From positions 1,829 to 65,828 of the forward strand of contig HF994452.1 in assembly GCA_000434195.1 (NCBI GenBank): a stretch of 64,000 bases of DNA. The letters run 5' to 3'. This DNA comes from Clostridium sp. CAG:780. GTDB taxonomy: Bacteria; Bacillota; Clostridia; TANB77; CAG-508. Made by a program: the position numbers and the translations under genes. The stretch's first letter is position 1. The number at the start of each line of letters is the position of its first letter. The notes below the pieces were generated by a model, which was not told the origin of the DNA, did no database searches, and worked only from the letters and a program-made list of their open reading frames with translations. Shown in pieces: positions 3,934 to 47,327 of this stretch.

Positions 3934-5733
3934 ATGACAAAGAAAATACATTATTGCTGGTTTGGTGGAAAGCCATTACCTAAGTCGGTAAAAGATTGCA
4001 TAAAAACGTGGAAAAAATTTCTACCAGATTATGAAATAAAAGAATGGAACGAAAGTAATTTTGATATTAATAGTTTTCCTTTTGTAAAAGAAGCCTATGA
4101 AAGTAAAAAATGGGCTTTTGTCAGCGACTATGTAAGAATTTATGCGCTTTATAAAGAAGGTGGATTATATTTAGATACAGATATGAAAATCCTAAAAGAT
4201 CCATCAGATATATTCAATAAAGATATGATACTGGGCTTTGAAGATAGTGGATATGTTGGAACTGCAATGATATATGTCAAAGAAGCAAAAAATAAATATA
4301 TAAAAGAGATTATGGAATATTACAATAAGATTAAGCATTTTAACCCGGAAATTATGTACAATTTTGCAAATCCAGTAATTATAACTAAAACATTACAAAA
4401 ATATGATAGTGTTTTAATAAATAATAATATTACTGTGGTAGATGGTAATGTGTATGTATATCCAAGAGAGTACTTTTATCCATTGAACTATAATTATTCG
4501 GAAAAAGTCTATACACAAAATACATATATGGTACATTTATTTAAGGCAACATGGACTGACAATGGAGAAAAGAGAACGATTGGAATATATAGAACTTTTG
4601 GACCAAGTGCTGGAAAAAGAATAAATCATGCAATAGACTTTATATTTGGACTAAAAAATAAAACAATAAACTTACTAAAAAAAATATATTGTTGGCTTAG
4701 AATGAAAGCATCCATATATATAAATAGAGGAAAAAGAGTAAGAAGAATACAAGAGGAACTTTCACAGAAAAAAGAAGAATATTTAGTTATTGCTCATCCT
4801 GATTTAAATGAAGAAACTGAAGGCATAATTCCATTGCTAAAAAATGAGTGCATATATGTAAGAGAACAATATACAAATAAAGAGGCAAGATTAATAGCTC
4901 AGGCCATAGCTAATACTGGTAAAAAGACTGTAATATTTAACTCGTATATTGATGGATGGGACAAGATAATAAAAGAACTAAAAACCATAAATCAAAATAT
5001 ATCAATAAAAGTGTTAATCCACAAAAATCATGATTCTTTAAAAGAGGACTGCACATGGAATTACTTTGATCTATTATTAGATTTATACAATAAGAAATGG
5101 GTAAATGAATTCGTAGTATTTAAAAAGAGTTTATACGAATTCTACAAACAAAAGGGGTATAAAGTTTCATATCTTAGCAAGTACCTTGCTAATGAGGAAA
5201 TACCACAATTAAAAGAAACAGCAATAGAGAACGATTATATAAGAATAGGAATATACAATGCTGAAAATAAAGAAAACAAAGAAATATATAATCAAATATG
5301 TGCTATCAGTTTAATGGAACTTGCTAAATTGGATTGTATGCCATTAAATTACAAAATTGCAAAAATATGTAGAAGATTTAACGTGAATGTAGGAGGAAAA
5401 TCAGGAAAAGTATCTAGAAAAGAAATGCAACAAAAAATGGCACAAAATGATATAAATCTTTTTATAAGTGAGTTTGATGAGACGTCAATTATGCCATTGG
5501 AAAGTTTAGAGCTTGGAACTATATGCTTAGTGGATAATAATTCAGAATATTTTAGAAACAGTGAACTAGAAAAATATTTAGTATTAGAAAAGCAAAATGA
5601 CATAATAGAAATATATAATAAAATAAATTATGCTCTACAAAATAAAGAGAAGATCCTAGAATTATACAAAAAATGGAAAGTGGAGTATAATGCAAAAGCA
5701 GAGGAAAATGTTAAGAAATTTTTAGAAAAATAA
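3934..5733 (+). CDS. two-domain glycosyltransferase (GT32-like N-terminus, GT-B/GT4-like C-terminus)
   Basis: N-terminus: IHYCWFGGKPLP and DYVRIYALYKEGGLYLDTD (DxD), as in Gly_transf_sug/GT32. C-terminus: SEFDETSIMPLESLELG resembles an E-x7-E region. Confidence 0.65.
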   Translation: MTKKIHYCWFGGKPLPKSVKDCIKTWKKFLPDYEIKEWNESNFDINSFPFVKEAYESKKWAFVSDYVRIYALYKEGGLYLDTDMKILKDPSDIFNKDMILGFEDSGYVGTAMIYVKEAKNKYIKEIMEYYNKIKHFNPEIMYNFANPVIITKTLQKYDSVLINNNITVVDGNVYVYPREYFYPLNYNYSEKVYTQNTYMVHLFKATWTDNGEKRTIGIYRTFGPSAGKRINHAIDFIFGLKNKTINLLKKIYCWLRMKASIYINRGKRVRRIQEELSQKKEEYLVIAHPDLNEETEGIIPLLKNECIYVREQYTNKEARLIAQAIANTGKKTVIFNSYIDGWDKIIKELKTINQNISIKVLIHKNHDSLKEDCTWNYFDLLLDLYNKKWVNEFVVFKKSLYEFYKQKGYKVSYLSKYLANEEIPQLKETAIENDYIRIGIYNAENKENKEIYNQICAISLMELAKLDCMPLNYKIAKICRRFNVNVGGKSGKVSRKEMQQKMAQNDINLFISEFDETSIMPLESLELGTICLVDNNSEYFRNSELEKYLVLEKQNDIIEIYNKINYALQNKEKILELYKKWKVEYNAKAEENVKKFLEK

Positions 5734-7948: not shown

Positions 7949-7960
7949 AAGGAGATTAAG

Positions 7961-35900: not shown

Positions 35901-37485
35901 AAAGAACGAACAACCAACAGGAACAATTAAATTAGATAAAACTATTGCATTAAAAGAAGATGCAGATACATCTTTAATTGATACATCAGACTTATCTGGT
36001 ATAGAATTTAAACTTTCAGCAAAAGAAAATATTATAGATATGGCAGATGGTAGTGTAATTTACAAAAAAGGACAAGAGATTAAAAAATATAATCTTACTA
36101 AAGATGGAAAATTAACAATAACAAATCTTCCAATGGGAACTTATGAAATAGTTGAAACTAAAACATTAGATGGACTTGTTTTAAATACAACAAAATATGA
36201 AGTTAAGTTTGAGCAAAAAGATTTAACTACAAAGATATATGAAACAAAATTAGATATTTCAAATGATACAACATTAGTTGAATTTTCTAAAACTGATATT
36301 ACTGGAGATAAAGAACTAATAGGAGCAAAACTTACAGTATTAGATAATGAAAATAATATTATAGATACATGGACATCAACAGAAAAAACACATAAAATTG
36401 AAGGCTTAACAATAGGAAAAGAATACACACTAAAAGAAGAAATTGCTCCAGATGGTTATGTAGTTGCTACAAGTATTAAATTTACTATAAAAGATACAAA
36501 TGAAATTCAAAAAGTAAATATGATTGATAAAATTGTTGAAATTAGCAAAGTTGATATAGCAGGAGATGAAATCGAGGGTGCAACAATTCAAGTATTAGAT
36601 AAAGACAATAAAGTAGTTGATGAATGGGTATCTGGTAAAGAACCACATAAAATCAAAAATTTAGTTGAAGGAGAAACTTATACATTACACGAAGAAATAG
36701 TTGCAGATTCTTATGTAAAAGCAACTGATGTTGAATTTATTGTAACAACAGATAAAGAAACACAAAAAGTAGTTATGATTGATAAATTAGTAGAAATAAC
36801 TAAAACAGATATAACAAATGGAAATGAACTAGAGGGTGCAGAATTAGAAGTAACAGATGAAGATGGTAATACAATAGATAAATGGACATCTACTAAAGAA
36901 CATCATAAAGTAAAAGGTTTAGAGGAAGGTAAAACATATATCTTAAAAGAAACAACTGCTCCTTATGGGTATGAAATTACTGAAGAAATAAAATTCACAG
37001 TAACAACTGACAAAGAAACTCAAAAAATAGAAATGAAAGATATGCCAATACTAAAAAATGTAAAGGTAATTAAGATTGATACTGAAACAAAAGAAGTTAT
37101 TAAAGATAAATTCATATTTGCAATATACGAAGATCCAGAATGTACAAAACTTATTAAAGAGGTTAAATCTAATTCAGAAGATGGAACAGCTTTATTTGAA
37201 GAATTAAGATATGGAACATATTACATTAAAGAAATAAAAGCACCAAAAGATTATGAATTATCAAACAAAATTGTTAAAGTTGAAATCAATGACAAAGGTA
37301 TATTTGTAGATGATACACAAGTAGAAGAAACTGAAAATACAATAGAATTTACTTTTGAAAATAAAAAGATAGAAGTTCCTAAAACTGGAGTTGAAAGCAA
37401 AATAAAATTATTTGCTAGTGCAATAATTCTATCTTTACTAGGAATAACTTATATAATTAAGCGTAAACAAAATAAAGATAAATAA
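32908..37485 (+). CDS. sortase-anchored surface adhesin: thioester-like N-terminal domain + many Cna-B/SpaA-type repeats + VPKTG sorting signal
   Basis: Signal peptide. VFCAEHG and FTQQYIW fit the Cys and Gln motifs of thioester domains. Repeated TE(T/K)xAPxGY(L/M)L units. The C-terminus is VPKTG, a hydrophobic stretch, then KRKQNKDK. Confidence 0.75.
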   Translation: MKVKKSNKMLATMMLILIIFSVIQPVFAASGSGTWSGGQYASGMKTTDNAGGTTGVLIRRLNNLNTGERRTVFCAEHGIDFKTGASYNGVYYTPTNSNIRKACKVAYLGWYKNNGGYTVDGGILASDMKWVKWDYVFTQQYIWEILGQSNATFINADEQQGYVDFKNRINNEIASIERRPSFNGNTITIQAGETKTINDSNGVLAEYGTIDNTKDGIRFVHQNGSNSMTISVDENTNLENYRISDNTFREWGMIKNGTEDNDTMVYFEFAAGVQNQLYCMSYNDPVTLNFSLAIETFGKLELQKLNTNGDLVNGAIFNVTGPNGYNQDITVTNGKITIDKLRKGIYTITEKSAPNGYLLNTQAYNVEVKVNQTATQAIVNNEPTGTIQVIKKSEQGDLIKGTIFKVIANENIKNVAGTKTYYTERQVIANITTDSNGLAEITNLPLGKYVVEETQATTGYLLDSTKHNVTLSYKGQTQKIVLESFEKIDTTPTGEIKVYKTDDYNNKLKGAEISLYAREDIKNVAGTRTWYKKGDLITKAITNDEGMVKFSDLYLGKYYVKETNAPEGYLLNTKEFDTELKYKDANTKVIYIDVNGIKDEEPTGTITIIKKDSETGSVPQGDATFNGAVYKVYANEDIYNKAKTKKFYSNGDLVATRTMNEKGETEDITNLPLGKYVVKEETAPIGYMLDKNTYNVELKYKDQYTKVITDTKTSLENVKKMGVHIFKSGIKENSGETPGLEGAEFTIKLNSAVERAYAQGYTYAEVWNGIDEDGNKVNVDSKRVAEAQVIAPSYETIKTDKDGNAYTQKNLPYGKYIVKETKTPTDYETAVDFTFSITDDESEIKEIAKKTKHLVVNNEQLETYIKLIKKDLKTGKLVTLNSTTFEIKATKDIYDRATKKILFKKGEAISQKIGNTTYTSFTTNADNIVVPDNSYNSKNDDKATITTPLKLPVGSYEITEIKVPTGFLQLESSVKFEIKNVKDYDTDKDGDYIREVIVKNEQPTGTIKLDKTIALKEDADTSLIDTSDLSGIEFKLSAKENIIDMADGSVIYKKGQEIKKYNLTKDGKLTITNLPMGTYEIVETKTLDGLVLNTTKYEVKFEQKDLTTKIYETKLDISNDTTLVEFSKTDITGDKELIGAKLTVLDNENNIIDTWTSTEKTHKIEGLTIGKEYTLKEEIAPDGYVVATSIKFTIKDTNEIQKVNMIDKIVEISKVDIAGDEIEGATIQVLDKDNKVVDEWVSGKEPHKIKNLVEGETYTLHEEIVADSYVKATDVEFIVTTDKETQKVVMIDKLVEITKTDITNGNELEGAELEVTDEDGNTIDKWTSTKEHHKVKGLEEGKTYILKETTAPYGYEITEEIKFTVTTDKETQKIEMKDMPILKNVKVIKIDTETKEVIKDKFIFAIYEDPECTKLIKEVKSNSEDGTALFEELRYGTYYIKEIKAPKDYELSNKIVKVEINDKGIFVDDTQVEETENTIEFTFENKKIEVPKTGVESKIKLFASAIILSLLGITYIIKRKQNKDK
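36277..37047 (+). repeat. three tandem, diverged repeats of ~86 codons within the adhesin
   Basis: Units start VEFSKTDITGD (36277), VEISKVDIAGD (36535) and VEITKTDITNG (36790). Confidence 0.7.
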
Positions 37486-37494
37486 TAAATGACG

Positions 37495-37519
37495 GAGAGC
37501 TAGATTATTAGCTCTCTTT
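37495..37519 (+). terminator. terminator hairpin gagagcta/tagctctc
   Basis: 8-bp perfect stem, 6-nt loop, followed by ttt. Confidence 0.55.
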
Positions 37520-37545
37520 AATTTGTTAAAAATGGGAGGTGTGAA

Positions 37546-37773
37546 ATGCCTAGAAGAAGAAACTTAAGAATGGAAACATATAACAAGTTAATAAGTATTG
37601 GAAAATCAACAGAAAAAGATATTTTAAATTTAAAAATAGAAGATTTAAAAGAAATAACGAAAGATCCTGATGTTTTGAATATTATTGCTTTACGAGAGTT
37701 TATTAAAGACCATAATACAATAGGGTATTTCAATTATCAAGAAACGAGAAAGGAGGAAACCGATGGCGAATAA
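37546..37773 (+). CDS. hypothetical small protein
   Basis: 75-aa ORF with gggagg upstream. Its end overlaps the start of the polyvalent ORF by 11 nt. Confidence 0.5.
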   Translation: MPRRRNLRMETYNKLISIGKSTEKDILNLKIEDLKEITKDPDVLNIIALREFIKDHNTIGYFNYQETRKEETDGE

Positions 37774-40700
37774 ATATCAACTAATAAATGAAATGGCAAG
37801 TGAAACATTGAAAGAAATTACTCAAAATGGAGAAAGTTGGATTAAGTTTTTAAATACGGCGAGTAACAATTACAAATATTCTTTTAATGAGCAAGTGTTA
37901 ATATATGCTCAAAAACCAAATGCTACTGCTTGTGCAGATATAGAAACTTGGAATAAAAAATTACGAAGATGGGTTAATAAGGGTGCAAAAGGTATTGCCT
38001 TATTATCAATGGAAAATGGCAGAAATGTATTAAGACATGTTTTTGATATTTCAGATACACATAGTGGTATAAATAAAGATTTTAAGTTATGGGAAATAAA
38101 ACCTTCTTATGAAAATGGAATTATAGAAACATTAGAAAATAGTTTTGGAAATTTAGAAGTTAAATCTAATTTAGCAGAAGCAATATATTCAGCATCTATA
38201 AATTTAGTTGAAGATAATTATCAAGATTATTTAGTTGATTTAAAAGAAGTTTTAGATGGTAGCTTATTAGAGGGAATGCAAGATATAGATTTAGAGGGAA
38301 ACTTTATTGTATTACTTGCAAAATCAATATCATATATGGCAATGAAAAGATGTGGCATTGATCCAACAGAACATTTTAATGTATCGGATTTTGAAATGAT
38401 TAGTAGTTTTAATAATAAAAGAGTTGTTTCAAGATTAGGTGCAGCAATAAGTGATATTGCAGAACAAGAATTAAGAGAAATCTATTCTAGTGTTATAAAT
38501 TATGAAAAAAATTATAAATTAACAAATCGTACATTTGTTAATAATGAAAAAATAAATTATCATAATAATGAAGAAAAAAATAATGAAGGGAGAAATGATT
38601 ATGATAGAATTAACATACAATCAAATGGGAGATTACCAAATACCACAAGTAGCATTACCAAAAACGAAGAAAATGGCACAGGGGAGATTCTCAAGAATGA
38701 GGGAGAAATTCCTAAAAGAACACAAAAGAGGGTTATACGAGGAATTAATGTTAGATGGCAAGATGGAAGAACATTTAGGAGAAATAGAGCAAACAGCCCA
38801 AAAGAGAATGAAACAGATAATAACAAGTCTAGCAGAGAAGAATCAAATAACAGAGGAAATGAAAAGAGAGAATCAAATGAGTTGGGTACAAGCAATGAAC
38901 TCAATAAAGAACCAAGTCGAAGAAATGATAATGTCAGAGCTAATTTACAATTAAATCTTTTTGAAGATACCTATGTACCACCAATTAAAGAGTTACCAAG
39001 TGTAGATACACAAATAAATAATATTCAAGCACAAGAAGAAGTAGAAAATACTTCTGCTTTTGAATTTACACAAAAGGTAATAGATGATGTTCTTTTAGAG
39101 GGTAGTCATTTTGCTGATGGAAAATTTAGAATTTATAGATTATTCCAAGAAAGTTATTCTACTGAAGATAACATTACTTTTCTTAAAAAAGAATATGGCG
39201 AGGGTGGTGGAGGTGTAAGAAATTACGAAAATTTAGACGAATGGCATAATGCAAAAGGGATTAGACTAACATTCGGACTAAAAGAAAATGCACCAGAAAC
39301 TTTGATAACATGGAGTAAGGTTGAAAAAAGAATAAAAGAATTAGTAAATGCTGATATTTATCTTAATAGTAATGAAAAAGAAGAATATCAAAAATGGCTT
39401 AATGAGGAATATGAAAATCAAAAATGGATGTATGATGCAAGAATAAATACAGATCAAAAACAAGTAGCTATTGATGAAGAAAATCAAGATATTCAAAATA
39501 TAGAAAAGAATTATAAATTATCTAATGGCAATTATTTTCACTTCCATACTAATGATGAGGGGTATTATTATGCGATTTATAATAACTTTGGAACAGAAAT
39601 AGATGGTGGATTGCTAGAATATTCCGAAATAGATAATACAAAACAATCTGAACTAGATATAAGAAAAAGACTTGCTGAATTTACAGACATAGAAGAATTA
39701 GCAAATGAAAATCTAAGAGAAGTAAGTCAAGAATTTATTGATGCTTTAGAATCTGGAGCTATTGCAGAAGAGGTTGGAAATGCTGTTTTAGAAAAAGTAG
39801 AAAATGACACAATAAATGCAATAGACGAGTTAAAAGCAATTGGACAAGCACAAAAAGTAATCAATTTATTTAAAGCCAGAGAAGAAAATGGAAAGCCACT
39901 TAATAGAGATGAATATTATAAAAATCAAGAAAAAATAAACTATCATATTGATAACAATTCTTTAGGAGAGGGAACTCAAAAAGAAAAAGTAAGAAAAAAT
40001 ATAGAGGCAATAAAACTTTTACATAAGTTAGAAGATGAAAATAGACTAGCAAATAAAGAAGAACAAGAAATTTTATCGAAATATGTTGGTTGGGGTGGAC
40101 TTCCAGATGTATTTGATGAAAATAAAGATAACTGGAGTAAAGAATATAACGAGCTAAAAGAAATACTTACAGATGAAGAATATAAGTCTGCAAGAGCTTC
40201 TACTTTAACTGCTTTTTATACACCACCAGTAGTTATAAATGCAATATATGACACTCTAAAAAGCATGGGTGTTGAACAAGCAAATATTCTTGAACCAAGT
40301 TGTGGTACAGGAAATTTTTTAGGAATGTTGCCACAAGAAATGCAAAGCTCAAAACTATATGGAGTAGAACTTGATTCCATAAGTGGTAAGATAGCAAAAC
40401 AATTATATCAAAAAGCAAATATTAAAGTTCAAGGTTATGAAAAAGCAGATTTACCAGACTCGTTTTTTGATATAGCAATAGGAAATGTGCCATTTGGAGA
40501 TTTCAAAGTTAATGATAAAAGATATGATAAAAATAATTTTCTAATACACGATTATTTCTTTGCTAAAACTTTAGATAAAGTTAGACCAGGAGGAGTAATT
40601 GCATTTATTACTTCAAAAGGAACAATGGATAAAGCAAGTCCAGAGGTTAGAAAGTATTTAGCACAAAGAGCAGACCTTTTAGGTGCTATTAGATTACCAG

Positions 40701-43700
40701 ATAATACTTTTACAAAGAATGCAGGAACAAAAGTAACATCAGATATTATCTTCTTACAAAAAAGAGAAAATTTGACTGATATAATGCCAGATTGGGTATA
40801 TCTTGATAGAGATGAAAACAATATTACAATGAATAAATATTTTGTAGATAATCCAGATATGATATTAGGAAAAATGGAAATGGTATCTACTGCTTATGGC
40901 TATGATTCAACTTGTAAAGCAGAAGAAGACACAAATTTAGAAGAACAATTAAATTATGCGATAACTAATATACATGGAGAATTACAGAATAATAGTATTG
41001 AAAATGAAATTGAACAAGAAGACACATCAATACCTGCAATTCCAACTGTTAAGAATTATTCTTATGCAATAGTAGATGATAAATTGTATTTTAGAGAAAA
41101 TTCAAAAATGATATTACAAGATGAGTTACCTTTAACGGCACAAAATAGAATAAAAGGCTTAATTTTGTTAAGAGAACAAGTAAGAGAACTAATTGATTTC
41201 CAAATGGAAGATTATTCAGATGAGAAAATTCATATTGCACAAGCAAAATTAAATGAATTATATGATAAATTTACAAAAGAATATGGCTTAATAAATTCAA
41301 GAGCAAATGAAACGGCATTTTCTAATGATAGTAGTTATTTCTTATTATGCTCACTTGAAAAAATAGATGGAGAGGGTAAATTTGTAGGAAAAGCTGATAT
41401 ATTTAGTAAAAGAACTATAAAGGCTAAAAAGAAAGTATTACAAGTAGATACACCAGATGAAGCACTAATTTTATCTATTCAAGATAAAGCAAAAGTTGAT
41501 TTAGACTATATGCAGCAATTATGCAATATGGATAAAGAAGAAATAATAAATAGTTTAGAGGGTGTTATTTTTAGAGTTCCTGATTATGAAAATACAAACA
41601 ATTGGGTAACTGCTGATGAATATTTATCTGGTAATGTTAGAGAAAAACTAAAAGTTGCAGAACAATTTGCAAAAGAAGATTCTAGTTTTAATATAAATGT
41701 TGAAAAATTAAAAGAGGTTATTCCAAAAGACCTTACTGCAAGTGAAATTGGAATTAAGTTAGGCTCAACATGGATACCTCCAGAAATCATTAGAAAGTTT
41801 ATTTTTGAATTATTAGATACACCAAGTTATAACAGATGGGATATTCATGTTAAATATTCTAATATAACTGCTGAATGGTATATTGATGGAAAAAGTAATG
41901 ATAGAAACAATGTAAAAGCATATACAACTTATGGTACATCAAGAATAAATGCATATAAAATAATAGAACAGACACTTAATCTAAAAGATGTAAAAATATT
42001 TGATACATTTATAGATGATGAGGGCAGAAAACAAAGAGTATTAAACAGAAAAGAAACTGCAATAGCTTGTAGTAAACAAGACGCAATAAAAGAAGCATTC
42101 TTAAATTGGGTATGGGAAGATCCAGAAAGAAGAAATCATTTAGTAAGACTTTATAATGATAAATTTAATTGCATAAGACCAAGAGAATATGATGGCTCTC
42201 ATATAGGTTTTGTAGGAATGAATCCAGAGATAAAATTAAGGACACATCAACTTAATGCAGTAGCACATGTTTTATATGGTAATAACACATTATTAGCACA
42301 TGAAGTAGGTGCAGGAAAGACTTTTGAGATGGTTGCAGCTGCAATGGAAAGTAAGCGTTTAGGCTTATGTAATAAGTCTTTATTTGTAGTTCCAAATCAT
42401 ATTATAGAGCAGTTTGCAAGTGAGTTTTTGCAACTTTATCCAAGTGCCAATATTTTAGTTGCTACTAAAAAAGACTTTGAAACCAAAAATAGAAAGAAAT
42501 TTTGTAGTAGGATAGCAACAGGAGAATTTGATGCAGTAATTATTGGACATTCACAATTTGAAAGAATACCAATGTCAATAGAAAGACAAATTGCATCATT
42601 AGAAGAACAAATAAGTGATATTACAAAAGGAATTGCCTCTGAAAAATCAAACAGAGGAGAAAACTATACTATTAAACAAATGGAGAAAACAAGAAAATCA
42701 TTAGAAACTAGATTAGAGAAATTACATAAGGAAGAAAGAAAAGATGATGTTGTAACATTTGAAGAATTAGGTGTAGATAAATTATTTGTTGATGAAGCTC
42801 ATAATTATAAGAATTTGTTTTTATATACGAAAATGCGTAATGTAGGTGGAATAGCACAAACTGAAGCACAAAAATCTTCCGACCTTTTTATGAAATGTAG
42901 ATATTTAGATGAAATTACAGGAGGCAAAGGTTCTGTATTTGCTACTGGAACACCAGTAAGTAACTCAATGGCAGAACTTTATACAATGCAGAGATATTTA
43001 CAATATTCTGGACTAAAAGAAAATAGTTTAGAACATTTTGATAATTGGGCAAGTACATTTGGAGAAACAGTTACTGCAATAGAACTTGCACCAGAGGGTA
43101 CAGGATATAGAGCAAAAACAAGATTTGCAAAATTTCACAATTTACCAGAGCTAATGTCTATGTTTAAAGAAGTAGCAGATATTCAAACTGCTGAAACATT
43201 AAATTTACCAACACCAGAATTTGAAAATATAAATGTAGTTGTAAAACCAAGTGAAATACAGCAAGAAATGGTTAAGGCTTTAGGAGAAAGAGCAGAGAAA
43301 ATAAGGTCAGGAACAGTTGATGCAACAGAAGATAATATGCTTAAAATTACAAATGAGGGTAGAAAACTTGCACTAGACCAACGACTTATGAATCCTTTAT
43401 TACCAGATTCAGAAAGTAGTAAAGTAAATTCATGTGCAGAAAATGTTTATAGAATATGGAATGAAAATAGTGATAAGAAATCAACGCAACTTGTATTTTG
43501 TGATTTATCAACACCAAAAGACTTAAAAGGCTATGAAAAAGAAGAATTTACAGATGTATATAATGAGTTAAAGAAAAAGCTAATTCAAAAAGGTATTCCA
43601 CCTGATGAAATAGCTTTTATTCATGAGGCAGATAATGAGGTTAAAAAGAAAGAATTATTTAGTAAAGTAAGAAAAGGACAAGTTAGAGTGTTAATGGGTT

Positions 43701-44725
43701 CAACTCAAAAAATGGGTGCAGGTACTAATGTTCAAGATAAGTTAATTGCAACTCATCATTTAGATTGTGCATGGAAACCTTCTGATTTGACTCAACGAAA
43801 TGGAAGAATGATTAGACAGGGGAATGAAAACAAAAAAGTATATGTATATTCGTATGTTACTGAAAAGACATTTGATAGTTATATGTATCAATTAGTAGAG
43901 CAAAAGCAAAAATTCATTTCTCAAATAATGACATCAAAAACACCTGCAAGAACAATGGAAGATATTGATGACAAAGCATTAACTTATGGAGAAATAAAAG
44001 CATTAGCAACAGGAAATCCTAAAATATTAGAAAAGACATCGTTAGATACTGATGTAGCAAAATTAAAACTATTAAAACAAGAATTTATGAATCAAAAATA
44101 TTCATTGCAAGATAAGATTATAAAATACTTTCCAGAAGAAATAGCAAGACTTAATAATAAAATTGGAGCAATGGAAGAAGATATTATTAAATTACAAGAA
44201 TACACTAGACCCAATGCAGATGGATTTTCTCCTATGAAAATAAATGGAATAACTTATACTGAAAAACAAGAGGCTGGAAAGAAACTATTAGAGAGTATTC
44301 AAAATTTAAAAAGTATTGAAACACGAGAAATAGGAGAATATAGAGGATTTACAATGGAGATGAGTTTCGATTCAATAACTAGAAATATTAGATTAAAACT
44401 AAAAAATAAATTTAGATATTCTATTGATTTAGGAACTGATGTAAATGGAAATATAACAAGAATAAATAATTGTTTAGAGAATATTGCAAAAGATATTCCT
44501 CACGAAAGAGATTTATTAGATAATACATATTTTCAATTAGAAAATGCAAAACAAGAATCTCAAAAGGAATTTCCTAAAGAACAAGAATTACAAGAAAAGT
44601 TACGAAAACTAGAAGAAATAAATGCAGAATTAAAAATAAATGAAAATGAACATGAAATGTTAGGAGATGAAAAGGAAGAAAAACAAGATAAATCTCCTGA
44701 TAAAAATTCTCCAGAAAGATTGTAA
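37763..44725 (+). CDS. polyvalent conjugative-element protein: ArdC-N-like ssDNA-binding domain + N6-adenine DNA methyltransferase + SNF2/DEAH helicase (DarB-like)
   Basis: N-terminus: NEQVLIYAQKPNATACADIETWNKKLRRWVNKGAKGIALL (ArdC-N pattern). Methylase: LEPSCGTGNFLG and GNVPFGD. Helicase: HEVGAGKTF, VDEAHNYKN and QRNGRMIRQGN. Confidence 0.8.
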   Translation: MANKYQLINEMASETLKEITQNGESWIKFLNTASNNYKYSFNEQVLIYAQKPNATACADIETWNKKLRRWVNKGAKGIALLSMENGRNVLRHVFDISDTHSGINKDFKLWEIKPSYENGIIETLENSFGNLEVKSNLAEAIYSASINLVEDNYQDYLVDLKEVLDGSLLEGMQDIDLEGNFIVLLAKSISYMAMKRCGIDPTEHFNVSDFEMISSFNNKRVVSRLGAAISDIAEQELREIYSSVINYEKNYKLTNRTFVNNEKINYHNNEEKNNEGRNDYDRINIQSNGRLPNTTSSITKNEENGTGEILKNEGEIPKRTQKRVIRGINVRWQDGRTFRRNRANSPKENETDNNKSSREESNNRGNEKRESNELGTSNELNKEPSRRNDNVRANLQLNLFEDTYVPPIKELPSVDTQINNIQAQEEVENTSAFEFTQKVIDDVLLEGSHFADGKFRIYRLFQESYSTEDNITFLKKEYGEGGGGVRNYENLDEWHNAKGIRLTFGLKENAPETLITWSKVEKRIKELVNADIYLNSNEKEEYQKWLNEEYENQKWMYDARINTDQKQVAIDEENQDIQNIEKNYKLSNGNYFHFHTNDEGYYYAIYNNFGTEIDGGLLEYSEIDNTKQSELDIRKRLAEFTDIEELANENLREVSQEFIDALESGAIAEEVGNAVLEKVENDTINAIDELKAIGQAQKVINLFKAREENGKPLNRDEYYKNQEKINYHIDNNSLGEGTQKEKVRKNIEAIKLLHKLEDENRLANKEEQEILSKYVGWGGLPDVFDENKDNWSKEYNELKEILTDEEYKSARASTLTAFYTPPVVINAIYDTLKSMGVEQANILEPSCGTGNFLGMLPQEMQSSKLYGVELDSISGKIAKQLYQKANIKVQGYEKADLPDSFFDIAIGNVPFGDFKVNDKRYDKNNFLIHDYFFAKTLDKVRPGGVIAFITSKGTMDKASPEVRKYLAQRADLLGAIRLPDNTFTKNAGTKVTSDIIFLQKRENLTDIMPDWVYLDRDENNITMNKYFVDNPDMILGKMEMVSTAYGYDSTCKAEEDTNLEEQLNYAITNIHGELQNNSIENEIEQEDTSIPAIPTVKNYSYAIVDDKLYFRENSKMILQDELPLTAQNRIKGLILLREQVRELIDFQMEDYSDEKIHIAQAKLNELYDKFTKEYGLINSRANETAFSNDSSYFLLCSLEKIDGEGKFVGKADIFSKRTIKAKKKVLQVDTPDEALILSIQDKAKVDLDYMQQLCNMDKEEIINSLEGVIFRVPDYENTNNWVTADEYLSGNVREKLKVAEQFAKEDSSFNINVEKLKEVIPKDLTASEIGIKLGSTWIPPEIIRKFIFELLDTPSYNRWDIHVKYSNITAEWYIDGKSNDRNNVKAYTTYGTSRINAYKIIEQTLNLKDVKIFDTFIDDEGRKQRVLNRKETAIACSKQDAIKEAFLNWVWEDPERRNHLVRLYNDKFNCIRPREYDGSHIGFVGMNPEIKLRTHQLNAVAHVLYGNNTLLAHEVGAGKTFEMVAAAMESKRLGLCNKSLFVVPNHIIEQFASEFLQLYPSANILVATKKDFETKNRKKFCSRIATGEFDAVIIGHSQFERIPMSIERQIASLEEQISDITKGIASEKSNRGENYTIKQMEKTRKSLETRLEKLHKEERKDDVVTFEELGVDKLFVDEAHNYKNLFLYTKMRNVGGIAQTEAQKSSDLFMKCRYLDEITGGKGSVFATGTPVSNSMAELYTMQRYLQYSGLKENSLEHFDNWASTFGETVTAIELAPEGTGYRAKTRFAKFHNLPELMSMFKEVADIQTAETLNLPTPEFENINVVVKPSEIQQEMVKALGERAEKIRSGTVDATEDNMLKITNEGRKLALDQRLMNPLLPDSESSKVNSCAENVYRIWNENSDKKSTQLVFCDLSTPKDLKGYEKEEFTDVYNELKKKLIQKGIPPDEIAFIHEADNEVKKKELFSKVRKGQVRVLMGSTQKMGAGTNVQDKLIATHHLDCAWKPSDLTQRNGRMIRQGNENKKVYVYSYVTEKTFDSYMYQLVEQKQKFISQIMTSKTPARTMEDIDDKALTYGEIKALATGNPKILEKTSLDTDVAKLKLLKQEFMNQKYSLQDKIIKYFPEEIARLNNKIGAMEEDIIKLQEYTRPNADGFSPMKINGITYTEKQEAGKKLLESIQNLKSIETREIGEYRGFTMEMSFDSITRNIRLKLKNKFRYSIDLGTDVNGNITRINNCLENIAKDIPHERDLLDNTYFQLENAKQESQKEFPKEQELQEKLRKLEEINAELKINENEHEMLGDEKEEKQDKSPDKNSPERL
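38601..38954 (+). CDS. tnpV: TnpV-like protein encoded in an alternative frame inside the polyvalent ORF
   Basis: The ORF track gives 38568..38954. AAGGGAG (38586-38592) lies 8 nt before ATG 38601. Product: MIELTYNQMGDYQIP...GRFSRMREKFLKEHKRGLY...ENQMSWVQAMNSIKNQVEEMIMSELIYN, which matches my recollection of TnpV family length and motifs. Confidence 0.55.
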   Translation: MIELTYNQMGDYQIPQVALPKTKKMAQGRFSRMREKFLKEHKRGLYEELMLDGKMEEHLGEIEQTAQKRMKQIITSLAEKNQITEEMKRENQMSWVQAMNSIKNQVEEMIMSELIYN

Positions 44726-44784: not shown

Positions 44785-45699
44785 ATGGGAATAGAACATT
44801 CGCAAAATTATTTACATAGTAAACAACTTGTAGCGACTTTGTTATCAAAGAGTAATATTTGTAACGACGATATTATAATTGAGATAGGTCCTGGAAAAGG
44901 AATTATTACCATTGAACTTGCAAAAAAAAGCAAGCAAGTTATAGCAATAGAGTTTGATGCGAAATTAGCGAAAACTTTATCTGAAAAGTATAAAGAATCT
45001 AAAAAAGTTCAAATAATAGAGATGGATTTTTTAAAATATAAAATATCAGTAAAAGAACCATATAAAGTATGTGCAAATATTCCATTTAACATAACTGCTG
45101 ATATTGTGAAAAAGGTATTTGAAGCCGATAATCCTCCTGAAGATATATATTTCATAATGCAGTATGAGGCTTTTCTCAGGTATTCTGGACAGCCCTTTTA
45201 TAACGAAAGTTTGAGGTCTCTTTTATACAAACCTTGGTTTTCCGCTGAATTGATTTATGAGTTTAAACCATCAGATTTTTATCCTGTGCCAAATGCACGA
45301 ATATGTTTTGCTCACTTTCAAAGAAAAACATCTGCTGATGTTGAGGATGCGATAGACTATAGAAATTTTCTGTCATATATATTTTTAGCATCTGGAAATA
45401 CTTTCAAAGATAAAACAAAAAAATTGTTTACTTATGAGCAACAAAAACGCATTTGCAAGTTTTTAAAAATTAAATTAGAGTCAACGCTTACTGAAATCTC
45501 ATACGATGGATGGCTGTACCTATATGATGTTTTTCTTAAATTTGTTTCCAACGAAAAAAAAGCTATTATATTAAATGCTGAACAAGACATGAAAAACAAT
45601 CAAAACAAGATTCAAAAAAAACATCGAAATCGTAATCATGGTTATTGGAAATTTGAAGCTAAGCGCCAAAAAAAATTAAAATTTGAAAATGGAAAATAA
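44785..45699 (+). CDS. erm: Erm-family 23S rRNA (adenine-N6)-methyltransferase, divergent, with a basic C-terminal extension
   Basis: HSQNYLHS, IIEIGPGKGIITIELAKKSKQVIAIEFD, YKVCANIPFNITADIVKK and DFYPVPN align in order with the ErmB motifs as I remember them. Confidence 0.7.
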   Translation: MGIEHSQNYLHSKQLVATLLSKSNICNDDIIIEIGPGKGIITIELAKKSKQVIAIEFDAKLAKTLSEKYKESKKVQIIEMDFLKYKISVKEPYKVCANIPFNITADIVKKVFEADNPPEDIYFIMQYEAFLRYSGQPFYNESLRSLLYKPWFSAELIYEFKPSDFYPVPNARICFAHFQRKTSADVEDAIDYRNFLSYIFLASGNTFKDKTKKLFTYEQQKRICKFLKIKLESTLTEISYDGWLYLYDVFLKFVSNEKKAIILNAEQDMKNNQNKIQKKHRNRNHGYWKFEAKRQKKLKFENGK

Positions 45700-45842
45700 G
45701 AATTTTATCAGTAGCTATATTTCAAATTTCTATATTATTAGCAATAGTGTAAACAAAAAAGTTGACAGAAAAAAGTAATAAGTAAATCATAAATTACAAT
45801 TTAGTGATTTGTTAGATAAATAGTAATTTGTAGGGAGGAACA

Positions 45843-47327
45843 ATGTCTTTAATAAGTGTAAATAATTTGACTTTTGGATATGATGGAAGTTTTAATAATA
45901 TATTTGAAAATGTTTCATTTAATATAGATACAGATTGGAAATTAGGACTAATAGGTAGAAATGGTAAAGGAAAAACTACATTTTTAAAGCTATTACAGGG
46001 AAAATATGAATATAGAGGAACAATATCAAAAAGTGTAGATGTTGATTATTTTCCTTTTGAAGTAACTAATAAAAATAGAATGTCAATAGAGATAGTAAAT
46101 GAAATTGCTCCAAATGTTGAGGATTGGGAAATTATAAAAGAATTGAATTTATTAAATAGTGATATAGAAATTCTTTATAGAAATTTTAATTTATTAAGTG
46201 GTGGAGAACAAATAAAAATACTTTTAATTAGCTTATTTTTAAAAGGAAATAATTTCTTGCTTATAGATGAGCCTACAAACCATTTGGACATAGAAACAAG
46301 AAATAATTTAGTTGATTATTTGGAAAAGAAAAAAGGTTTTATATTAGTATCTCACGATAGAATTTTTTTAGATAAAGTTGTAAATCATATTATTTCTATA
46401 AATAACACTAATATTGAAATACAGCAGGGTAATTTTTCATCTTGGAAAGAAAATAAAGACAGACAAGATAATTTTGAAATAATGCAAAATGAAAAATTAC
46501 AAAAAGATATAAATAAACTTGAAATTGCTTCAAAAAATACTGCAAAATGGTCTAATGAGGTTGAAAAGTCAAAATATAAAACAAGCAATTCAGAATCAAA
46601 GATAGACAGAGGTTACCTAGGACATAAGTCTGCTAAAATGATGAAAAAGTCAAAAGTTATGGAAGGGCGAATTGAAAAGGCAATAGATGAAAAAACTAAT
46701 TTATTAAAAAATATAGATAGAAATGATAGTTTAAAAATAATTCCAATAGGAAGTAGAAAAAGTCCATTGATTTTAGCAAATAACTTACAAATAAAATACA
46801 ATGAAAAAATAATATTCTCTCCAGTTTCATTTGAAGTAGAAAATGGAGATAGAATTGCAATAGTTGGAAAAAATGGAATAGGAAAATCAAGTATATTAAA
46901 ATTGATTTTAGGTCAAGAGATACAATATAACGGAGAATTAAAAATAGCAAATGACTTAAAAATATCTTATGTATCACAGAATACAGACTATTTAAAAGGA
47001 AACTTAAAAAACTTTTCACAAGATAATAAAATAGATGAAAGTATTTTTAAAGCAATGTTATCTAAAATGGGATTTTCAAAATTAGATTTTGATACTAAAA
47101 TTGAAGAAATGAGCGAAGGACAGAAAAAGAAAATTTTAATTGCAAAAAGTATATCAGAACAAGCTAATATTTATATATGGGACGAGCCATTGAATTATAT
47201 AGATATACTAACAAGAGAACAAATAGAGGACTCAATCTTAAAATATAATCCAACACTAATCTTTGTTGAACACGATACAACTTTTGTAGAGAAAGTAGCG
47301 ACAAAGATTATAACAATAGAAAAATAA
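45843..47327 (+). CDS. ABC-F ribosomal protection protein, Lsa-like
   Basis: Two ABC cassettes with no TM domain. The N-terminus LTFGYDGS...NIDTDWKLGLIGRNGKGKTTFLKLLQGKYEYRGTI...VDYFPFEV closely follows the Lsa N-terminus pattern. Second Walker A: GKNGIGKSS. Confidence 0.8.
   Translation: MSLISVNNLTFGYDGSFNNIFENVSFNIDTDWKLGLIGRNGKGKTTFLKLLQGKYEYRGTISKSVDVDYFPFEVTNKNRMSIEIVNEIAPNVEDWEIIKELNLLNSDIEILYRNFNLLSGGEQIKILLISLFLKGNNFLLIDEPTNHLDIETRNNLVDYLEKKKGFILVSHDRIFLDKVVNHIISINNTNIEIQQGNFSSWKENKDRQDNFEIMQNEKLQKDINKLEIASKNTAKWSNEVEKSKYKTSNSESKIDRGYLGHKSAKMMKKSKVMEGRIEKAIDEKTNLLKNIDRNDSLKIIPIGSRKSPLILANNLQIKYNEKIIFSPVSFEVENGDRIAIVGKNGIGKSSILKLILGQEIQYNGELKIANDLKISYVSQNTDYLKGNLKNFSQDNKIDESIFKAMLSKMGFSKLDFDTKIEEMSEGQKKKILIAKSISEQANIYIWDEPLNYIDILTREQIEDSILKYNPTLIFVEHDTTFVEKVATKIITIEK

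Follow-up and report, generated by a model that had tools for sequence, protein, structure and literature searches.

The stretch of DNA considered here, in the following called the window, comprises 64,000 nucleotides (nt) of Clostridium sp. CAG:780 (assembly GCA_000434195.1, contig HF994452.1, positions 1,829 to 65,828) and has a GC content of 28%. It contains an integrative and conjugative element (ICE) in which one very long open reading frame (ORF) encodes a polyvalent protein of 2320 amino acids (aa). Entirely inside this large ORF, on the same strand and in the +1 frame, lies a complete tnpV gene. Both frames are maintained among relatives, and the start signals of tnpV are conserved. 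The features of the locus are the following:

37763 to 44725, plus strand: large polyvalent ORF, 2320 aa, uninterrupted in the ORF list and in its translation.
37763 to 38533, plus strand: folded N-terminal domain of the large protein (N-domain, aa 1-257), with an AlphaFold predicted local distance difference test (pLDDT) of ~90.
38534 to 38998, plus strand: linker of the large protein (aa 258-412), predicted to be disordered and enclosing the entire overlap; based on AlphaFold, composition, stop count and an excess of nonsynonymous over synonymous differences (pN>pS).
38568 to 38954, plus strand: +1-frame ORF around tnpV, 128 aa, from the ORF list.
38574 to 38580, plus strand: run of seven A (A7) shortly before tnpV; if one A is lost, N-domain and TnpV become an in-frame fusion.
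38585 to 38592, plus strand: Shine-Dalgarno-like motif GAAGGGAG within the large ORF, placed 8 nt before the start codon of tnpV.
38601 to 38954, plus strand: coding sequence of the nested tnpV (117 codons and a stop), read in the +1 frame of the large ORF; based on Pfam TnpV, PHROG, pN/pS and AlphaFold.
38599 to 38904, minus strand: antisense ORF, 101 aa, from the ORF list.

A first-pass annotation of the window, made from the letters alone, had likened the +1-frame product to the TnpV family and proposed a profile search. This search bore the assignment out, since the 117-aa product matches Pfam TnpV (PF14198) over its full length (profile positions 1-111 of 111, E=1.1e-37, 128.9 bits at a cut-off of 27). 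It also matches PHROG 24764 (E=8e-35), and neither PADLOC nor NCBIfam gave a match for TnpV. The AlphaFold model of TnpV (pLDDT 84.5) consists of a beta-hairpin and a helical bundle. The structural description given in that annotation was likewise reproduced: the ORF list contains the long ORF, open throughout 37763-44725, the +1 frame is open for 128 codons and yields 117 aa from ATG 38601 with the sequence as quoted, and the site described as AAGGGAG, 8 nt before this ATG, corresponds to GAAGGGAG. Both translations further confirm that the C-terminal ELIYN-stop of TnpV uses the same bases as RANLQL of the long frame, which then runs on into NLFEDT. In one related contig (JBJFEZ010000058.1, L017), GenBank labels the nested ORF 'TnpV protein'.

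The large ORF encodes, in this order, an ArdC-N-like domain, a disordered linker, an LPD16-containing region, a putative N6-adenine-type methyltransferase region and a SNF2/DEAD helicase with Helicase_C. Pfam matches above the cut-off are LPD16 (residues 581-662), SNF2-rel_dom (1505-1684) and Helicase_C (1933-2020), while Methyltransf_25 at residues 842-909 scores 21.5 bits and thus stays under its cut-off of 27; the motif GNVPFG is present in the translation. Several unrelated domains including an LPD are hence joined in one polypeptide on a conjugative element, as is typical of polyvalent proteins. The N-domain is probably related to ArdC-N. It matches Pfam ArdcN (PF08401) below the cut-off (E=0.025, 15.2 bits, cut-off 22.6), and its best Foldseek match is ArdC of R388 (6sna_F, E=0.019, probability 0.99, target-normalised TM-score 0.41); a sequence search of the PDB with the N-domain profile gave no match. 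In the AlphaFold model of residues 1-560, the stretch 258-412 has a pLDDT of 26-39 and no secondary structure, and the chain is folded again from residue 434. The linker is thus predicted to be disordered, and the overlap (long-frame residues 280-397) falls fully within it. One peptide of the linker frame is NGRLPNTTSSITK. The description of the linker as low-complexity and rich in N/E/R/K/S agrees with our measurement, as residues 280-397 consist of 75% N/E/R/K/S/G/T/D and 18% hydrophobic residues, compared to 39% hydrophobic residues in the remainder of the protein.

Relatives were collected by two routes. Alignment with TnpV yielded TnpV homologues and 80 genome loci, which form two classes. 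In the nested class (n=53), the long frame is open through the whole of tnpV in 53 of 53 loci and then runs on over more than 1700 codons; all of these loci have an intact TnpV ORF, and TnpV identity to the window ranges from 42 to 100%. Among its members are the cultured Caproicibacter fermentans EA1 and Flavonifractor sp. An100, together with chromosomes of metagenome-assembled genomes (MAGs) obtained with hifiasm from high-fidelity (HiFi) reads (L024, L028). In the stand-alone class (n=33), tnpV is an ordinary gene and the corresponding frame is shut after 3-91 codons. The second bait was a distant N-terminal domain, 37% identical to that of the window, which gave 80 metagenome loci with GC contents of 0.38-0.57. 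TnpV is found in the +1 frame, 38-95 nt past the domain and inside the continuing ORF, in 75 of these 80 loci, with profile E-values that reach 1e-39 for complete copies. The other five comprise three contig ends, one in-frame fusion (L095) and one split (L145), so that 75 of 77 evaluable loci are nested. Homologues of residues 1-560 of the large protein (identity 36-100%) contain the linker, which settles the earlier question of whether the segment is present in them. The arrangement even extends to an ICE-like plasmid region of Streptococcus suis, where a +1-frame ORF scoring above the Pfam TnpV cut-off (54 bits vs 27, E=1.6e-14) lies within a gene annotated as a 'DEAD/DEAH box helicase family protein' of 2422 aa. 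This ORF follows a homologous N-domain (25% identity, E=4e-12), is preceded by AAGGAGG, and is not called in the annotation of the record. Since nesting is found across the N-domain-bait loci and in S. suis, it is a family trait of large ICE genes rather than a peculiarity of the window. The nested pair thus looks like a real and widespread gene-within-gene, present from Clostridia to Streptococcus in more than 100 related elements.

Such breadth also bears on the proposal that the long ORF is an artefact and that the true structure consists of three genes (N-domain, tnpV and methylase/helicase) joined by an assembly or sequencing error, which the first-pass annotation had listed as its third reading. 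It could draw on locus L005, called as three products of 264 aa, TnpV and 1879 aa, and on L145, in which the N-domain ORF stops before tnpV. However, L005 departs from the others by one stop ahead of tnpV, and its long frame then runs without interruption through tnpV into the conserved LNLF..YVPPIKELPSV segment. More than 120 independent assemblies, including the hifiasm MAG chromosomes and cultured isolates, keep a single ORF, and none of the roughly 10 stops expected by chance is present. We regard an artefact as extremely unlikely.

The chance expectation comes from a null model in which the TnpV protein was kept and synonymous codons were redrawn from local usage. In 20000 draws, the long frame through tnpV contained a mean of 10.0 stops, compared to 0 observed, and zero was never drawn (P<1/20000). 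Third-position T occurs 10 times in the window tnpV against 29 expected from synonymous recoding. Resampling locus by locus gave the following numbers of stops in the long frame or its equivalent:

Nested AT-rich loci: 0 observed, 10-14 expected.
Nested GC-rich loci: 0 observed, 2.3-6 expected.
Stand-alone AT-rich tnpV: 16-24 observed, 11-21 expected.
Stand-alone GC-rich tnpV: 3-7 observed, 4-8 expected.

Since the counts in stand-alone tnpV match the expectation, the null model is calibrated. One might still argue that both frames are open by accident, owing to a purine-rich composition, and that the long frame is unselected, given that the overlap contains 70% purines compared to 62% across the whole ORF, and that the antisense frame is likewise open in the window. 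This explanation is already contradicted by the stand-alone control set: stand-alone tnpV genes encoding similar proteins in AT-rich genomes have 52-63 third-position T and 16-24 stops. The bias in purines and third-position T is itself the signature of stop avoidance, the remaining forward frame contains 22 stops over the overlap, and the long frame is open in every nested locus at GC contents from 0.26 to 0.63. A compositional origin is consequently so improbable that we give it hardly any weight.

The antisense ORF at 38599-38904 was considered as a third gene and rejected. Its phase is open in just 24 of 119 nested relatives, and when an open long frame is imposed, the probability that it is open by chance increases roughly ninefold (0.18% to 1.6%). 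It is most likely a by-product of the avoidance of T at third positions of tnpV and not a gene.

Selection on the two frames was compared by pairwise Nei-Gojobori (NG86) analysis of the window against 30 nested relatives. In the TnpV frame, pN/pS is ~0.2-0.3 and pS equals that of the flanking domains (0.4-0.6), whereas in the long frame pN exceeds pS over the same nucleotides (e.g., 0.23 vs 0.13). Purifying selection on amino acids was sought in both frames of the overlap and found in the TnpV frame only. The long frame is thus constrained only to stay open, by stop avoidance, and TnpV alone is constrained in its amino-acid sequence; of the dual-frame selection for which a check had been suggested, one half was thereby confirmed and the other was not. 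Consistently, the conserved-looking linker motifs NGRL and NLQL are frame shadows of the invariant GDY and ELIY of TnpV, and in GC-rich relatives the shadow reads as a D/G/R/A/S-rich linker that ends in ADLQL.

These data hardly fit a view in which the captured tnpV is dead, function resides in the long frame alone and the TnpV frame persists as an unexpressed fossil. This view can point to the S. suis annotation, which omits TnpV from the large gene, and to the fact that the case for TnpV expression is built on sequence. It is opposed by the low pN/pS of the TnpV frame next to pN>pS in the long frame, by nested copies just 42% identical to the window TnpV that still match the profile at E 1e-32 to 1e-39, by the retention of Shine-Dalgarno motif and ATG in 111 of 119 copies, and by the intact TnpV ORF in every nested locus. 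We judge a dead tnpV to be very unlikely. The second reading of the first-pass annotation, a captured tnpV now read as a linker, is therefore probably right as history and wrong if TnpV is taken as dead.

How translation of tnpV would begin is indicated by the sequence ahead of its ATG. A Shine-Dalgarno motif of the GAAAGGAG or GAAGGGAG type lies 7-9 nt before the ATG in the 111 copies just mentioned. In three lineages (L160, L053, L076), a TnpV-frame stop is located 0-1 codon before the ATG and downstream of this motif, and TnpV can therefore be reached there only by initiation at the ATG; in 16 of 83 distinct contexts, at most 10 TnpV-frame codons are open upstream of it. All this fits production of TnpV by independent internal initiation. 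A promoter scan of 37400-39200 found 12 sites compared to 11.8 in shuffled sequences and thus no sign of an internal promoter.

Alternatively, TnpV could be made as the C-terminus of an N-domain::TnpV protein through programmed +1 frameshifting or transcriptional slippage at the A7 run. In-frame fusions of this kind do exist. They are 383-415 aa long, most of them 396 aa (P0094, P0095, P0098, P0099, P0109-P0111, P0114, P0121, P0126-P0128), and the metagenome locus L095 is such a fusion allele. In five 396-aa proteins (P0094, P0095, P0109-P0111) the junction NNEEK|IMKGE lies exactly at the A7 run, and P0109 occurs on 18 contigs. However, the junctions vary between the A7 run, an A5 run, a non-homopolymer site (TGEI|SRMRE) and deletions, and because they differ, the fusions look like independent 1-nt deletions, each of which opens a long fusion ORF because both frames are open. 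All fusions terminate at the tnpV stop, so that the methylase/helicase part is cut off. Furthermore, the A7 run is confined to the close lineage of the window and is not conserved elsewhere, and a comparison of the nested lineages found no conserved slippery sequence that joins the frames at a fixed position. The upstream stops in three lineages and the short entry distance in the 16 contexts argue in the same direction, and the 7-9 nt between Shine-Dalgarno motif and ATG is the spacing of an initiation site. We consequently reject programmed frameshifting at A7 as a general mechanism, and consider TnpV synthesis by this route in the window distinctly improbable. The fusion alleles could represent decay, or else an on/off switch at the A7 run.

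Taken together, both ORFs are intact beyond chance, the arrangement is kept in diverged homologues and the inner gene has its own initiation signals. In our judgment it is quite probable that the ICE carries a real same-strand nested gene pair, in which TnpV is translated independently and the same DNA encodes a flexible tether of the large protein. This corresponds to the first reading of the first-pass annotation, namely a tnpV that sits within the linker of a DarB-like protein and is expressed together with it, and the TnpV match, the homologues, the two open frames and the conserved ribosome-binding site and ATG all speak for it. In such a nested pair, the large gene would be translated in frame 0 into one polyvalent protein, of which codons ~258-412 would form a flexible tether of unconstrained sequence between the ArdC-N-like domain and the LPD/methyltransferase/SNF2-helicase modules. 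Ribosomes would start separately on the same mRNA at GAAGGGAG and ATG 38601 in the +1 frame, giving the folded 117-aa TnpV. Selection keeps the amino acids of TnpV and acts on the other frame only against stops, mainly by excluding T at third positions of tnpV before AA, AG or GA.

As to the history of the pair, TnpV is folded, constrained and independent elsewhere, and the host frame is disordered and unconstrained, which suggests to us that of the two the long frame is derived. Likely, a pre-existing tnpV located between or beside the flanking modules came to be read through in an alternative frame, which would have welded the flanks into one ORF. This would represent an overprinting event with the long ORF as the newcomer frame. 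A rough neighbour-joining tree of 131 distinct TnpV sequences implies at least 6 switches between the nested and the stand-alone state. Within window positions 37763-40460, two relatives are mosaics: L015 has flanks with a pS of 0.06-0.08 and a TnpV that is just 85% identical, and in L006 the N-domain and TnpV are almost identical to those of the window and the next segment has a pS of 0.42. Hence, recombination breakpoints cluster around tnpV, which appears to be exchanged as a module.

Beyond the nested pair itself, we lean slightly towards a joint reading of these observations. The polyvalent gene of this ICE superfamily may have arisen by fusion of two genes across tnpV, whose alternative frame became the linker, with tnpV staying functional and separately initiated. 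The linker would then be the frame shadow of a hidden gene and TnpV a universal, overlooked component of these elements. Nesting would enforce its co-inheritance and co-expression with the ArdC-like/methylase/helicase establishment protein, and may in addition mark out the snf2 hotspot at which mobilizable elements with TnpV insert.

Several points weigh against a functional nested pair. Translation of the two products is a prediction from the sequence. Because the linker frame lacks amino-acid constraint, the need for covalent continuity of the large protein follows solely from stop avoidance. A Foldseek comparison of the TnpV model with the PDB returned nothing with E below 3 and hence no hint at its function. 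Finally, alleles that break continuity are rare, yet persist: besides the split in L145 and the 396-aa N-domain::TnpV fusions, L005 carries a single stop (NKNK*YHESK) at its positions 7958-7960 (~38560 of the window), just before the tnpV ribosome-binding site, which splits off the 264-aa N-domain. With its long frame still open through tnpV, L005 represents a natural 'unfused' allele.

Further irregularities of the large ORF were seen downstream of tnpV. In L101 and L116 (~4077-4200), it shifts frame in a T run (FFFF), either by a real frameshift or by an assembly error. In L140 (4021-4641) and L122 (~3950), it is interrupted ~270-320 nt past the tnpV stop, and the next ORF of L140 starts like a small serine recombinase (MKIGYVRVSTTDQ). 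Possibly, this interruption site is a hotspot for insertions, comparable to the published IME_SNF2 sites discussed below. A search of plasmid and phage collections at the DNA level with 37700-39700 gave short N-domain matches only and was uninformative.

Regarding the genomic context, chromosomal genes (RuvB, QueH) extend to ~29.4 kb of the window and are succeeded by the ICE. Its genes follow in the order ParA, ParB, SpaA-type adhesin, large gene, Erm-like rRNA methyltransferase and ABC-F protein; next come DUF3991-Toprim, relaxase, DUF3801, type IV coupling protein (T4CP), VirB4-like ATPase, sortase and CHAP hydrolase. In a scan that covered part of the ICE ORFs, no recombinase was found beside the tnpV-bearing gene, the neighbours of which are the SpaA adhesin and the Erm-like methyltransferase. 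A terminator-like hairpin (37494-37517) follows the SpaA adhesin gene, and a conserved 75-aa ORF without Pfam match (37546-37773) shares 11 nt with the beginning of the large gene. Immediately behind the latter (44785-47327), the Erm-like rRNA adenine methyltransferase and the ABC-F protein form a probable resistance cargo. In the related locus L002 (13515-16354), an adenylyltransferase and a reverse-transcriptase gene (group II intron-like) take the place of the ABC-F gene.

Other tnpV loci showed features of their own. Stand-alone tnpV genes of AT-rich Clostridia (L043, L046 and ~28 others; e.g., L046 4367-4663) are immediately followed by a conserved gene of ~96-98 aa without Pfam match (TAG gaggaNNNNNatg), which suggests a two-gene operon. 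TnpV-like sequences, full or truncated and ~29% identical to the window TnpV, recur on plasmids of Campylobacter, Streptococcus, Enterococcus, Lactococcus and Salmonella (H24-H41; e.g., L168 4664-4891, L170 8001-8237). Two of these plasmid records were inspected (H37, H39) and rejected as nested copies: the TnpV fragments in them lie immediately ahead of tet(O)-type genes and have nothing to do with nesting.

In bacteria, nested same-strand genes that are both long and conserved are a great rarity, and they are usually discarded during automated annotation. The tnpV case involves 354 nt, a curated protein family and more than 100 assemblies, and it lies within an ICE gene that is already studied as a hotspot for resistance-carrying mobilizable elements. 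We found no published description of tnpV nesting in these genes in the open-access literature, and the arrangement is apparently an unreported gene-within-gene. It would illustrate a route to gene fusion in which the gene in between is not lost, while its DNA comes to encode a disordered tether in another frame, and it would account for the origin of conserved-looking linker motifs in large ICE proteins. As a constant companion of an ArdC-like anti-restriction module, TnpV gains a concrete system in which its role can be sought. Furthermore, disruptions or 'domain deletions' in these large genes would also strike a second gene, which should be kept in mind when they are interpreted.

Among known systems, the tnpV genes of Tn4451/Tn4453 and Tn6104-6106 are genes of their own alongside a TnpX-type serine recombinase, and an Xis-like role was once proposed for TnpV (PMC3158075). 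The window tnpV resembles that of Tn4451 in belonging to the same PF14198 family at full length (~117-123 aa) and in residing on a mobile element of Firmicutes. In contrast, it lies wholly inside another gene in another frame, with no intergenic space and, among the ORFs scanned, no TnpX-type recombinase beside it. The stand-alone tnpV genes among the loci compared differ from the nested ones as well, since their codon usage is normal and their alternative frame contains numerous stops.

The large gene itself is known as an integration target. Integrative and mobilizable elements termed IME_SNF2 carry serine integrases and insert into the snf2 gene of ICEs (PMC5357655, PMC7168690, PMC9815147), and their inserted cargoes were reported to carry a 'TnpV' gene (PMC9815147). 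In streptococci and C. difficile, mobilizable elements with serine recombinases are reported to enter the snf2 or large gene of ICEs and to carry a 'TnpV'. Such a TnpV gene may be part of the insert, or else the nested copy of the host gene laid bare by its disruption. They target the same gene family as the large gene of the window, which in contrast is without insertion. The 11-bp repeat reported for such elements (TTTTGCGGACA) does not occur in the intact S. suis gene.

Polyvalent proteins of conjugative elements and phages were described by Iyer et al., 2017 (PMC5512222); that paper does not mention TnpV, frameshift, overlapping or linker. Judged by its architecture, the large protein is akin to the P1 DarB-type methylase-helicase and to the 'SNF2' gene product of Tn5252-family ICEs, as it combines LPD16, a putative methyltransferase, SNF2 helicase and a probable ArdC-N. 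Its gene likewise sits in an ICE with ParA/ParB, relaxase, T4CP and VirB4. It is set apart by its low-complexity 'linker', which we explain as the frame shadow of tnpV.

Out-of-frame nested genes are represented by comS in srfAB of B. subtilis, mobB in mobA of RSF1010, Rz1 in Rz of lambda and E in D of phiX174. Like these, the window tnpV is small but complete, shares the strand but not the frame of the larger translated gene around it, and has a ribosome-binding site of its own. Unlike them, it is the nested gene that is folded, constrained and probably the older partner, while the host frame is an unconstrained, disordered linker. The extent of the arrangement differs too, as the overlap spans 354 nt and the nesting is preserved from Clostridia to Streptococcus within one family of ICE genes.

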